This document shows positions 19,372 to 45,373 of a stretch of 64,000 nt of DNA, piece after piece. The stretch comes from Escherichia coli (GTDB taxonomy: Bacteria > Pseudomonadota > Gammaproteobacteria > Enterobacterales > Enterobacteriaceae), in NCBI RefSeq assembly GCF_030384885.1, contig NZ_CP128613.1; one strand, written 5' to 3'. The position numbers were made by a program, and so were the translations under genes. Every line of letters begins with the position of its first letter. The first letter of the stretch is position 1. A model generated the notes under the pieces. The model was not told the DNA's origin. It made no database searches and saw only the letters and a list, made by a program, of their open reading frames with translations.

Positions 19372-20422
19372 GCGCGATGCAATCAATCATATCCGGCAGT
19401 TTGGCGGGCGTCTGGATCGCTTCCGTAAATCGGTCGGCGGCTCTGGCGACGGCGGTCGTAACGCGCCAAAACGGGCGAAATCCTCGCCAAAACCGGTAAA
19501 TCGCAAAACCAACGTTTTCAACGAACAGGTGCGCTATGCCTTCCACGGCGCATTGCAGGATCTGAAAAGTAAACCGTTCGCCACGTTTTTAACGGTGATG
19601 GTTATCGCCATCTCCCTGACGCTGCCCAGCGTCTGTTATATGGTGTACAAAAACGTTAACCAGGCGGCGACGCAGTATTATCCGTCACCGCAAATCACCG
19701 TTTATCTGCAAAAAACGCTGGACGATGACGCCGCTGCGGGCGTGGTGGCACAGTTGCAGGCCGAGCAAGGTGTAGAGAAAGTGAATTATCTTTCTCGTGA
19801 AGACGCACTGGGCGAGTTCCGTAACTGGTCTGGTTTTGGTGGTGCGCTGGATATGCTGGAAGAAAACCCGCTTCCGGCAGTGGCGGTGGTGATCCCGAAA
19901 CTCGATTTTCAGGGGACCGAGTCACTGAATACCTTGCGCGATCGTATCACCCAGATCAACGGCATTGACGAAGTGCGAATGGATGACAGCTGGTTTGCCC
20001 GTCTGGCGGCGTTGACCGGGCTGGTCGGGCGCGTTTCGGCAATGATCGGCGTATTGATGGTGGCGGCAGTGTTCCTCGTCATCGGTAACAGTGTGCGTCT
20101 GAGCATCTTTGCTCGCCGTGACTCCATTAACGTACAGAAACTGATTGGTGCGACAGATGGTTTCATCCTGCGCCCATTCCTGTACGGTGGCGCATTGCTG
20201 GGATTTTCTGGCGCATTGCTGTCATTAATTTTGTCGGAAATTCTGGTCCTGCGTTTGTCTTCGGCGGTTGCGGAAGTGGCACAGGTTTTCGGAACGAAGT
20301 TTGATATCAATGGCTTATCTTTCGATGAATGTCTGCTTTTGCTGCTGGTGTGTTCGATGATTGGCTGGGTGGCAGCCTGGCTTGCCACGGTACAACATTT
20401 ACGCCACTTTACGCCTGAATAA
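19364..20422 (+). CDS. ftsX: cell division permease FtsX
   Basis: Recognised from [15 protein letters not shown] (352 aa); ATG overlaps the ftsE stop. Confidence 0.95.
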
Positions 20423-40420: not shown

Positions 40421-41416
40421 ATGAAAAAGAAAAGACCCGTACTTCAGGATGTGGCTGACCGTGTTGGCGTGACCAAAATGACGGTCAGCCGTTTTTTACG
40501 CAACCCGGAGCAGGTTTCCGTCGCTCTACGTGGCAAGATTGCCGCCGCTCTTGATGAACTGGGTTATATTCCCAATCGCGCGCCCGATATCCTCTCTAAT
40601 GCCACCAGCCGGGCGATTGGCGTCCTGTTACCTTCACTCACCAACCAGGTTTTCGCTGAAGTATTACGCGGTATCGAAAGCGTCACGGACGCACACGGTT
40701 ATCAGACGATGCTGGCGCACTACGGTTACAAACCGGAAATGGAGCAAGAACGCCTCGAATCAATGCTTTCCTGGAATATCGACGGACTTATTCTCACCGA
40801 ACGTACCCACACGCCCCGCACCTTAAAGATGATTGAAGTAGCGGGTATTCCGGTGGTGGAGCTGATGGACAGTAAGTCGCCGTGCCTCGATATCGCCGTC
40901 GGTTTTGATAACTTTGAAGCGGCACGCCAGATGACCACCGCCATTATTGCTCGCGGGCATCGTCACATTGCCTATCTCGGCGCACGCCTCGACGAACGTA
41001 CTATCATCAAACAGAAGGGATATGAGCAGGCGATGCTGGATGCAGGCCTGGTGCCGTATAGCGTGATGGTCGAGCAATCTTCTTCTTACTCTTCCGGTAT
41101 TGAACTGATTCGCCAGGCGCGGCGGGAATATCCGCAGTTGGATGGCGTATTTTGTACTAATGATGACCTGGCGGTCGGCGCGGCGTTTGAATGTCAGCGT
41201 CTGGGGCTGAAAGTTCCTGACGATATGGCGATTGCCGGTTTCCACGGTCATGACATTGGTCAGGTGATGGAGCCACGGCTGGCGAGCGTGCTGACGCCGC
41301 GTGAGCGGATGGGCAGCATTGGCGCTGAGCGCCTGCTGGCGCGTATTCGTGGCGAATCTGTGACACCGAAAATGTTAGATTTAGGTTTCACCTTGTCACC
41401 AGGCGGATCTATTTAA
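40421..41416 (+). CDS. gntR: gluconate utilisation repressor GntR (LacI family)
   Basis: 331 aa, N-terminal helix-turn-helix (LQDVADRVGVTKMTVSRFL), recognised. Confidence 0.96.
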   Translation: MKKKRPVLQDVADRVGVTKMTVSRFLRNPEQVSVALRGKIAAALDELGYIPNRAPDILSNATSRAIGVLLPSLTNQVFAEVLRGIESVTDAHGYQTMLAHYGYKPEMEQERLESMLSWNIDGLILTERTHTPRTLKMIEVAGIPVVELMDSKSPCLDIAVGFDNFEAARQMTTAIIARGHRHIAYLGARLDERTIIKQKGYEQAMLDAGLVPYSVMVEQSSSYSSGIELIRQARREYPQLDGVFCTNDDLAVGAAFECQRLGLKVPDDMAIAGFHGHDIGQVMEPRLASVLTPRERMGSIGAERLLARIRGESVTPKMLDLGFTLSPGGSI

Positions 41417-41495
41417 GCTCACAAATTTGAAGTAGCTCACACTTATACACTTAAGGCACGGATGGATATTGCTTCTGTTTTTGTCCGGCTGGACA

Positions 41496-41525
41496 ATGTT
41501 ACCGATAACAGTTACCCGTAACATT
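41496..41525 (+). promoter_or_regulatory. GntR operator(s) in the gntK promoter
   Basis: aatgttaccgataacagttacccgtaacatt contains two overlapping ATGTTAC-N-GTAACAT-like palindromic half-site arrangements, about 30 bp upstream of gntK. Confidence 0.75.
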
Positions 41526-41555
41526 TTCTGATTCTTGTATTGTGGGGGCACCACT

Positions 41556-42083
41556 TTGAGCACGACTAACCATGATCACCACATTTACGTCTTGATGGGC
41601 GTATCGGGCAGCGGCAAATCTGCAGTCGCCAGTGAAGTGGCGCATCAACTTCATGCCGCGTTTCTTGATGGCGATTTCCTCCATCCGCGCTGCAATATCG
41701 AAAAAATGGCGTCTGGCGAACCGCTGAATGACGACGATCGCAAACCGTGGTTACAGGCGCTTAACGACGCCGCGTTTGCCATGCAGCGCACCAATAAAGT
41801 GTCGCTGATCGTCTGTTCTGCACTGAAAAAGCACTATCGCGACCTGCTGCGTGAAGGTAATCCGAATCTCTCTTTCATCTACCTGAAAGGCGATTTTGAT
41901 GTAATTGAAAGCCGTCTGAAAGCGCGCAAAGGCCATTTCTTTAAAACCCAAATGCTGGTGACGCAGTTTGAAACGCTGCAGGAGCCGGGTGCGGACGAAA
42001 CCGATGTACTGGTGGTGGATATCGATCAACCGCTGGAAGGTGTTGTGGCAAGCACCATTGAGGTTATTAAAAAAGGCAAATAA
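41556..42083 (+). CDS. gntK: thermoresistant gluconokinase GntK
   Basis: Recognised (STTNHDHHIYVLMGVSGSGKSAV, P-loop); start assigned to the TTG giving a 175-aa product; the track's upstream ATG at 41535 is the alternative. Confidence 0.9.
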   Translation: MSTTNHDHHIYVLMGVSGSGKSAVASEVAHQLHAAFLDGDFLHPRCNIEKMASGEPLNDDDRKPWLQALNDAAFAMQRTNKVSLIVCSALKKHYRDLLREGNPNLSFIYLKGDFDVIESRLKARKGHFFKTQMLVTQFETLQEPGADETDVLVVDIDQPLEGVVASTIEVIKKGK

Positions 42084-42086
42084 GTA

Positions 42087-43427
42087 GTGACTACATTAAC
42101 GCTTGTTTTAACAGCAGTAGGGTCTGTTTTACTGCTGCTGTTTTTAGTCATGAAGGCGCGTATGCACGCTTTCCTGGCTTTGATGGTGGTGTCTATGGGG
42201 GCTGGCCTTTTTTCCGGTATGCCGCTCGATAAAATCGCAGCGACGATGGAAAAAGGGATGGGAGGCACCCTCGGCTTCCTGGCGGTAGTTGTCGCCCTGG
42301 GAGCCATGTTTGGCAAGATCTTACATGAAACCGGCGCAGTCGATCAGATTGCCGTCAAAATGCTCAAATCCTTCGGTCACAGTCGTGCGCATTATGCCAT
42401 TGGCCTTGCGGGCCTGGTTTGTGCGCTACCACTGTTCTTTGAAGTGGCGATTGTTCTGCTGATTAGCGTTGCTTTCTCAATGGCGCGCCATACTGGCACG
42501 AACCTGGTGAAGCTGGTTATCCCGTTATTCGCGGGCGTGGCGGCAGCAGCGGCGTTCTTACTACCGGGGCCAGCGCCAATGCTGCTGGCATCGCAGATGA
42601 ATGCTGACTTTGGCTGGATGATCCTGATTGGCCTGTGTGCGGCAATCCCGGGAATGATTATTGCCGGGCCGCTGTGGGGTAATTTCATCAGCCGCTATGT
42701 GGAGCTGCATATTCCTGACGATATCAGCGAACCGCATCTCGGCGAAGGCAAAATGCCGTCCTTCGGATTCAGCCTGTCGCTGATCCTGCTGCCGCTGGTG
42801 CTGGTGGGGCTGAAAACCATTGCCGCACGTTTTGTGCCGGAAGGCTCTACCGCTTACGAATGGTTCGAGTTTATCGGTCATCCGTTTACCGCAATTCTGG
42901 TCGCTTGCCTGGTAGCAATTTACGGCCTGGCGATGCGTCAGGGTATGCCGAAAGACAAAGTGATGGAGATTTGCGGTCACGCGCTGCAACCGGCGGGGAT
43001 TATTCTGCTGGTGATTGGTGCAGGCGGCGTGTTCAAACAGGTGCTGGTTGACTCTGGCGTAGGTCCGGCGCTGGGCGAAGCGTTAACCGGCATGGGCCTG
43101 CCGATTGCCATCACCTGCTTCGTGCTGGCAGCTGCAGTGCGCATCATTCAGGGTTCTGCCACCGTTGCCTGTTTAACGGCGGTGGGACTGGTGATGCCGG
43201 TTATTGAACAGCTGAACTACTCCGGTGCGCAAATGGCGGCGCTGTCAATTTGTATCGCCGGTGGTTCGATTGTTGTCAGCCACGTTAACGACGCCGGTTT
43301 CTGGTTGTTCGGTAAATTTACCGGCGCGACCGAAGCCGAAACGCTGAAAACCTGGACCATGATGGAAACCATCCTCGGCACCGTTGGTGCCATCGTCGGG
43401 ATGATTGCGTTCCAGCTGTTGAGTTAA
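42087..43427 (+). CDS. gntU: low-affinity gluconate transporter GntU
   Basis: 446 aa, GTG start, GntP-family membrane protein, recognised. Confidence 0.94.
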   Translation: MTTLTLVLTAVGSVLLLLFLVMKARMHAFLALMVVSMGAGLFSGMPLDKIAATMEKGMGGTLGFLAVVVALGAMFGKILHETGAVDQIAVKMLKSFGHSRAHYAIGLAGLVCALPLFFEVAIVLLISVAFSMARHTGTNLVKLVIPLFAGVAAAAAFLLPGPAPMLLASQMNADFGWMILIGLCAAIPGMIIAGPLWGNFISRYVELHIPDDISEPHLGEGKMPSFGFSLSLILLPLVLVGLKTIAARFVPEGSTAYEWFEFIGHPFTAILVACLVAIYGLAMRQGMPKDKVMEICGHALQPAGIILLVIGAGGVFKQVLVDSGVGPALGEALTGMGLPIAITCFVLAAAVRIIQGSATVACLTAVGLVMPVIEQLNYSGAQMAALSICIAGGSIVVSHVNDAGFWLFGKFTGATEAETLKTWTMMETILGTVGAIVGMIAFQLLS

Positions 43428-44077: not shown

Positions 44078-44269
44078 AACTCAAATTCCCTGATAATTGC
44101 CGCGGACTTTCTGCGTGCTAACAAAGCAGGATAAGTCGCATTACTGATGGCTTCGCTATCATTGATTAATTTCACTTGCGACTTTGGCTGCTTTTTGTAT
44201 GGTGAAAGATGTGCCACGAGGAGACCGGCACATTTATACAGCACACATCTTTGCAGGAAAAAAACGCTT

Positions 44270-45373
44270 ATGAAAAATGTTGGTTTTATCGGCTGGCGCG
44301 GTATGGTCGGCTCCGTTCTCATGCAACGCATGGTTGAAGAGCGCGACTTCGACGCCATTCGCCCTGTCTTCTTTTCTACTTCTCAGCTTGGTCAGGCTGC
44401 GCCGTCTTTTGGCGGAACCACTGACACACTTCAGGATGCCTTTGATCTGGAGGCGCTAAAGGCCCTCGATATCATTGTGACCTGTCAGGGCGGCGATTAT
44501 ACCAACGAAATCTATCCAAAGCTTCGTGAAAGCGGATGGCAAGGTTACTGGATTGACGCAGCATCATCTCTGCGCATGAAAGATGACGCCATCATCATTC
44601 TTGACCCCGTCAATCAGGACGTTATTACCGACGGATTAAATAATGGCATCAGGACTTTTGTTGGCGGTAACTGTACCGTAAGCCTGATGTTGATGTCGTT
44701 GGGTGGTTTATTCGCCAATGATCTTGTTGATTGGGTGTCCGTTGCAACCTACCAGGCCGCTTCCGGCGGTGGTGCGCGACATATGCGTGAGTTATTAACC
44801 CAGATGGGCCATCTGTATGGCCATGTGGCAGATGAACTCGCGACCCCGTCCTCTGCTATTCTCGATATCGAACGCAAAGTCACAACCTTAACCCGTAGCG
44901 GTGAGCTGCCGGTGGATAACTTTGGCGTGCCGCTGGCGGGTAGCCTGATTCCGTGGATCGACAAACAGCTCGATAACGGTCAGAGCCGCGAAGAGTGGAA
45001 AGGGCAGGCGGAAACCAACAAGATCCTCAACACATCTTCCGTAATTCCGGTAGATGGTTTATGTGTGCGTGTCGGGGCATTGCGCTGCCACAGCCAGGCA
45101 TTCACTATTAAATTGAAAAAAGATGTGTCTATTCCGACCGTGGAAGAACTACTGGCTGCGCACAATCCGTGGGCGAAAGTCGTTCCGAACGATCGGGAAA
45201 TCACTATGCGTGAGCTAACCCCAGCTGCCGTTACCGGCACGCTGACCACGCCGGTAGGCCGTCTGCGTAAGCTGAATATGGGGCCGGAGTTCCTGTCAGC
45301 CTTTACCGTGGGCGACCAGCTGCTGTGGGGGGCCGCGGAGCCGCTGCGTCGGATGCTTCGTCAACTGGCGTAA
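44270..45373 (+). CDS. asd: aspartate-semialdehyde dehydrogenase
   Basis: Recognised from [21 protein letters not shown] (367 aa); the track ORF starts 41 codons upstream. Confidence 0.97.

Follow-up and report, generated by a model that had tools for sequence, protein, structure and literature searches.

The control region and translation start of the Escherichia coli gntKU operon

The interval immediately upstream of gntK (41496-41558) is almost certainly the promoter-operator region, together with the translation start, of the Escherichia coli gntKU operon, gntKU being the literature name for the arrangement of gntK followed by gntU. Positions refer throughout to the window, meaning the whole stretch of 64,000 nucleotides that was analysed. 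The identification draws on base identity with K-12, the geometry of the operator repeats, conservation across species, the strength of the Shine-Dalgarno element, and the length of the annotated and crystallised protein. The gntK control region is an ordinary one and has already been characterised, with RefSeq, RegulonDB, and RegPrecise-type resources already containing both the operators and the correct start. The relevance of the analysis lies mainly in the quality of annotation: a longest-ORF rule places the gntK start wrongly, at 41535, and no new biology follows.

The gntR-gntK-gntU locus and its relatives

A 721-nt query covering the locus (41380-42100) was matched in 5424 of 5426 complete E. 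coli genomes. Strain 2013C-4282 displays 100% identity to this query, with gntR, gntK, and gntU as the annotated features under the match, and it has the gene order yhhX-yhhW-gntR-gntK-gntU-yhgN-asd in common with K-12. The three genes at the centre of this order are the following:

40421-41416, plus strand: gntR, gluconate repressor (ORF, RefSeq product name, Pfam)
41556-42083, plus strand: gntK, gluconokinase, 175 aa, TTG start (RefSeq coordinates, PDB 1KNQ, species comparison)
42087-43427, plus strand: gntU, gluconate permease of the GntP family, GTG start (ORF, RefSeq, Pfam GntP_permease at 4.6e-168)

Despite its name, GntR is a member of the LacI family and not of the winged-helix 'GntR family', with Pfam matches to the LacI HTH (PF00356, 7e-19) and to Peripla_BP_1 (2.6e-32), the latter representing a periplasmic-binding-protein fold. 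GntK has a P-loop kinase fold with shikimate-kinase-type Pfam matches, and the kinase-domain matches start at residue 12. Residue 46 of GntK (41691-41693, TGC) is Cys in the window and Arg in both K-12 and PDB 1KNQ. The idea that Cys46 is unusual was ruled out, as this position is occupied by Ser, Cys, Arg, Ala, or Lys across 80 species.

The species comparison is based on one scan of representative genomes, which provided 80 enterobacterial loci from Escherichia, Salmonella, Citrobacter, Klebsiella, Raoultella, Enterobacter, Kosakonia, Kluyvera, Leclercia, Lelliottia, and other genera; with the window added, the set comprises 81 sequences. The nearest characterised system is the gntK promoter of K-12 (gntKp), which shows the same gene order from yhhW to asd (yhhW-gntR-gntK-gntU-yhgN-asd) and the same CRP site sequence. 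It is identical to the window over two stretches, one running from the -10 hexamer to the end of the operators and the other from the Shine-Dalgarno element to the TTG. The differences that do exist are at strain level only: the stretch separating the CRP site from the -35 hexamer contains a few substitutions, and the window leader has one extra base plus one substitution near 41530-41532. Comparison with the characterised gntK promoter, which the original prediction had named as a check, thus finds operators, Shine-Dalgarno element, and TTG identical to K-12.

Twin GntR operators over a CRP-dependent promoter

The control elements between gntR and the gntK leader are located as follows:

41423-41444: cAMP-CRP site AAATTTGAAGTAGCTCACACTT, centre 41433.5 (identical to the published K-12 gntKU CRP site, conserved in the species alignment)
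41469-41474, plus strand: probable -35 hexamer TTGCTT (within the conserved block ATTGCTT, 17 bp from GACAAT)
41492-41497, plus strand: probable -10 hexamer GACAAT (within a block conserved across species)
41496-41511: GntR operator 1 (O1), ATGTTACCGATAACAG (palindrome, gntT operator match, K-12 identity, conservation)
41509-41524: GntR operator 2 (O2), CAGTTACCCGTAACAT (palindrome, gntT operator match, K-12 identity, conservation)

O1 and O2 are imperfect 16-bp palindromes that have 3 bp in common and centres 13 bp apart, and they are self-complementary at 12 and 10 of their 16 positions, respectively. A repeat finder recovers the same 13-bp spacing in the form of two 13-nt direct copies, GTTACCGATAACA (41498-41510) and GTTACCCGTAACA (41511-41523). 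When at most one mismatch is allowed, the core pattern GTTACCSRTAAC has four matches at the operator spot and one elsewhere in the 64 kb, while the shuffled 64-kb window contains a mean of 0.53 matches and at least five in 0 of 100 shuffles. The operator stretch is base-for-base identical to that of K-12 MG1655, the pairwise alignment being invariant over 41485-41529, and the twin operator is kept in 80 of the 81 enterobacterial sequences, with O1 near-invariant in the 80 species. The last base of O2 is separated from the TTG at 41556 by 31 nt. The stray one-mismatch match to the operator core, GTTACCGATGAC at 20078-20089 on the minus strand, is within chance expectation.

The RegPrecise comparative study of Ravcheev et al. 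2014 (PMC4052901, citing Tsunedomi 2003a) describes E. coli gntKU as preceded by functional overlapping GntR sites with a spacing of ~13 bp, and adds that over half of the GntR-regulated operons in gamma-proteobacteria retain this overlapping arrangement. On the strength of this secondary citation and of the identity with K-12, the 13-bp overlapping pair in the window would likewise be bound by GntR and functional. The original prediction had placed two overlapping palindromic GntR sites ~30 bp upstream of gntK, and both the sites and their position are borne out, the former by repeat geometry, enrichment over shuffles, K-12 identity, and the published description (PMC4052901), the latter by the 31-nt distance. 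In general, operators of the LacI family are even palindromes of ~16-20 bp, and overlapping double sites at ~13 bp occur upstream of 110 operons in the same study (PMC4052901). Compared with these, the gntK pair shows nothing distinctive, and gntKU is the 13-bp example that this source itself cites.

A second known system is E. coli gntT, whose published operator ATGTTACCCGTATCAT was located upstream of K-12 gntT (1884-1899 of locus L083). It has the same half-site consensus, GTTAC...GTAAC, as the gntK sites and a CC centre as in O2, and it agrees with O1 at 12 and with O2 at 13 of 16 positions. Like gntK, gntT has a promoter with two sites; however, those of K-12 gntT start 141 bp apart (1886-1897 and 2027-2038 of L083), whereas the gntK sites abut with their centres 13 bp apart. 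The second K-12 gntT site, GTTACCCATAAC, lies 141 bp downstream of ATGTTACCCGTATCAT, just before the ATG.

The symmetry of the whole element allows another reading, in which the 37 bp are mainly the target of a different regulator, e.g., the paralogue IdnR/GntH, or form one long palindrome that is bound as a unit. Both operators are indeed contained in a larger inverted repeat (41492-41509 versus 41511-41528) with 18-nt arms that are 83% complementary. Furthermore, GntR and IdnR are stated to share binding sites in PMC2395238, and the title of Tsunedomi 2003a, as cited in PMC4052901, says that GntH negatively controls GntR-regulated GntI genes. Yet the latter source assigns the gntKU sites to GntR, gntR is the adjacent gene, and each half alone resembles a single gntT operator at the 12 and 13 positions given above. 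Sharing of sites with IdnR would also add to a model with GntR as regulator instead of replacing GntR. This other reading is therefore considered very improbable, and O1 and O2 are treated below as two GntR operators.

The gntKU CRP site listed as aAaTtTGAagtagcTCACAcTt in Price et al. 2008 (PMC2395238) equals window 41423-41444, and according to the RegulonDB v8 paper, CRP activates gntKp from a site at -69.5 (PMC3531196). Counting 69.5 from the CRP centre at 41433.5 places the transcription start near 41503. The -35 hexamer, the -10 hexamer, and this start are probable assignments, derived from conservation and the published CRP position. Agreement of the hexamers with consensus is weak (3/6 for TTGCTT and 4/6 for GACAAT). 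A generic promoter scan returned no consensus promoter on the plus strand and left TTGCTT/GACAAT unreported; such silence on weak hexamers is as expected, as the promoter is CRP-dependent. The text of a Cappable-seq supplement (four files) contained no gntK entry for the transcription start. TTGTCC (41481-41486) and GATAAC (41504-41509) were also considered as hexamers and rejected, as the TTGTCC block is not conserved and CRP would fall near -82, not -69.5.

With respect to this predicted start, the operators occupy the promoter itself, beside the gene of their LacI-family regulator. O1 overlaps the -10 hexamer and is centred on the start, and O2 is found at about +7 to +22, with its centre at about +14. 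The proposed regulation would run as follows. A weak sigma-70 promoter would initiate near 41503, with cAMP-CRP activating from the site at -69.5, and GntR, encoded just upstream, would bind the abutting O1 and O2. Two bound GntR dimers would then span the promoter, starting at the -10 hexamer and reaching about +22, and may block either binding or escape of RNA polymerase, with gluconate releasing the repressor. Judging by the position of the operators, repression would act by steric exclusion of RNA polymerase, as is usually assumed for a LacI-type repressor placed in this manner.

The TTG start of gntK

Between the operators and gntK, the following elements bear on the choice of start codon:

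41529-41531, plus strand: in-frame TGA, closing the frame opened by the ATG at 41496 (codon list)
41535-41537, plus strand: upstream in-frame TTG that opens the mechanical 182-aa ORF, not accepted as start (longest ORF)
41544-41548, plus strand: Shine-Dalgarno element GGGGG, 7 nt before the TTG at 41556 (duplex energy with the 16S rRNA tail)

The TTG at 41556-41558, a rare start codon, is in frame and gives a protein of 175 aa that ends at the stop TAA (42081-42083). In a strain 100% identical over the stretch, RefSeq gntK corresponds exactly to window 41556-42083, and the K-12 gene b3437 is also 528 nt long (RefSeq, 175 aa). GntK in PDB 1KNQ has 175 aa and begins with MSTTNH, and its alignment to the 182-aa ORF sets in at ORF residue 8. 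Crystallised GntK is 175 aa in five further PDB entries as well, although the crystallised 175-aa protein is a cloned construct and hence no independent proof of the native N-terminus. A search of the accessible literature found no N-terminal sequencing, initiation profiling, or UUG-start listing of GntK.

The GGGGG element pairs with the 16S rRNA tail at -8.4 kcal/mol, an energy reached at only 1.3% of sampled window positions. The corresponding energies are +0.6 kcal/mol for the TTG at 41535 and +1.2 kcal/mol for the ATG at 41595, so that among the compared starts a strong ribosome-binding site is found only at 41556. The leader RNA (41503-41600) is less stable than 199 of 200 shuffles, with a z-score of +1.89, and folding against these 200 shuffles indicated no regulatory RNA structure in the gntK leader. 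Such weak folding fits an accessible, open initiation region. The transcript would accordingly carry a poorly structured leader of ~53 nt, and translation would start at the TTG at 41556 by means of GGGGG to produce the 175-aa kinase.

Across species, TTG stands at the position aligned with 41556 in 77 of 80 cases and ATG in the other three, with GTG in none, and a purine-rich Shine-Dalgarno element precedes the aligned start by 4-7 nt in all 81 sequences. In the alignment, the operators are highly conserved, the spacer shows a sharp loss of conservation, and the sequence becomes conserved again at the Shine-Dalgarno element and the TTG at 41556. The spacer between operators and start has a length of 20-87 nt, depending on the sequence, and represents all three mod-3 classes, which shows that it is non-coding. 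In 39 of the 80 species, reading upstream in frame meets a stop before any other start codon; elsewhere, the offset of such a start differs by species. Third codon positions nearby in the gene are much less conserved than the start codon, the majority base reaching 0.44-0.7 in many of the first 30 gntK codons. Two claims of the original prediction, i.e., that a TTG at 41556 yields the expected 175 aa and that a G-rich Shine-Dalgarno precedes it, are accordingly upheld: the first by the in-frame translation, RefSeq, PDB 1KNQ, and the TTG in 77 of 80 species, the second by GGGGG at 41544-41548, 7 nt upstream of the TTG and at -8.4 kcal/mol.

A third claim, that the ORF track used an upstream ATG, is the only one that proved mistaken, and it leads to the other candidate starts. 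In the gntK frame, the TGA at 41529-41531 is followed by the TTG at 41535 and then by the TTG at 41556, and the mechanical longest ORF begins at the former TTG (182 aa). No upstream ATG opens into gntK, as the only one in frame, at 41496 within O1, meets the TGA after 11 codons; this ATG also lies upstream of the predicted transcription start. Initiation at the TTG at 41535, as in the longest-ORF model, would make use of the first start codon after the in-frame stop, and this codon does lie inside the predicted transcript beginning near 41503. However, it is without a Shine-Dalgarno element (+0.6 against -8.4 kcal/mol) and is located in the 20-87 nt spacer that occurs in all frame classes. An equivalent start before the stop is absent in 39 of 80 species and at variable offset in the others, conservation sets in sharply at 41556 and not at 41535, and the 175-aa length used by RefSeq and the PDB entry stands against a 182-aa product. 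A start at 41535 thus appears highly unlikely.

Even less credible is a start at the first in-frame ATG, 41595 (Met14), which would give 162 aa and was apparently the start in an older gene model. This ATG is the only one in frame near the 5' end, and it agrees with the K-12 CRP site being listed at -171 of gntKU in PMC2395238: the ATG is 172 nt away in the window, minus the 1-nt deletion in the K-12 leader, while the TTG, at 133 nt, does not fit. As the -171 distance fits only the Met14 ATG, the earlier K-12 gene model probably began there (162 aa), with NP_417894.2 probably being the revised record. Yet the ATG at 41595 is without a Shine-Dalgarno element (+1.2 kcal/mol), and the protein sequence of residues 1-13 (STTNHDHHIYVL) is conserved across the 80 species while third codon positions vary. 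This pattern marks residues 1-13 as coding and rules out the Met14 start. In addition, the P-loop GVSGSGKS would be put at the extreme N-terminus although the kinase-domain matches begin at residue 12, and residues 1-13 are included in the solved GntK structure. The TTG at 41556 is thus retained as the start of gntK.

It could be speculated, though the idea is somewhat doubtful, that this weak start is kept by selection instead of chance, as TTG is found in 77 of 80 species from many enterobacterial genera even though a single T-to-A change gives ATG. If so, the combination of an inefficient start codon and a strong Shine-Dalgarno element might hold the kinase low relative to the GntU permease, or the weak TTG might limit the cost of basal gntK expression. 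A selected TTG would be a modest quantitative point and not a new mechanism.

Neighbouring gene calls and the gntK/gntU junction

The frame of the operator-1 ATG varies among relatives. The one base by which the window exceeds K-12 near 41530 puts this ATG in the gntK frame, whereas in K-12 it is out of frame. In several species (among E. albertii, Kosakonia, Kluyvera, and Phytobacter), the frame is open from the operator-1 ATG (at -57) into gntK, with the preceding stop at -120 or -183 (loci L006, L009, L028, L040, L042, L050, L053, L063, L067, and L072). The open frame in these relatives is a trap for ORF callers and invites over-long gene calls. Further downstream in the window, the longest ORF of asd (44147-45373, 408 aa, ATG at 44147) is ~41 codons longer than the gene from the RefSeq start at ~44270, and this over-long call is a longest-ORF artefact, as for gntK.

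Downstream of gntK and on the same strand, gntU begins with the GTG at 42087, 3 nt past the gntK stop, and has a weak Shine-Dalgarno element (-3.2 kcal/mol); translational coupling of gntU to gntK is plausible. A terminator-like hairpin is found at 42112-42147, inside gntU codons 9-20, and consists of an 11-pair stem, CAGCAGTAGG...TTACTGCTG, followed by CTGTTTTTAG. This may be the gntK/gntU attenuator of the older literature. Most of 70 distinct enterobacterial sequences retain the hairpin, a conservation confounded by coding constraint, as it overlaps with a Leu-rich membrane helix, whereas Salmonella enterica subsp. arizonae and diarizonae carry a degraded form.
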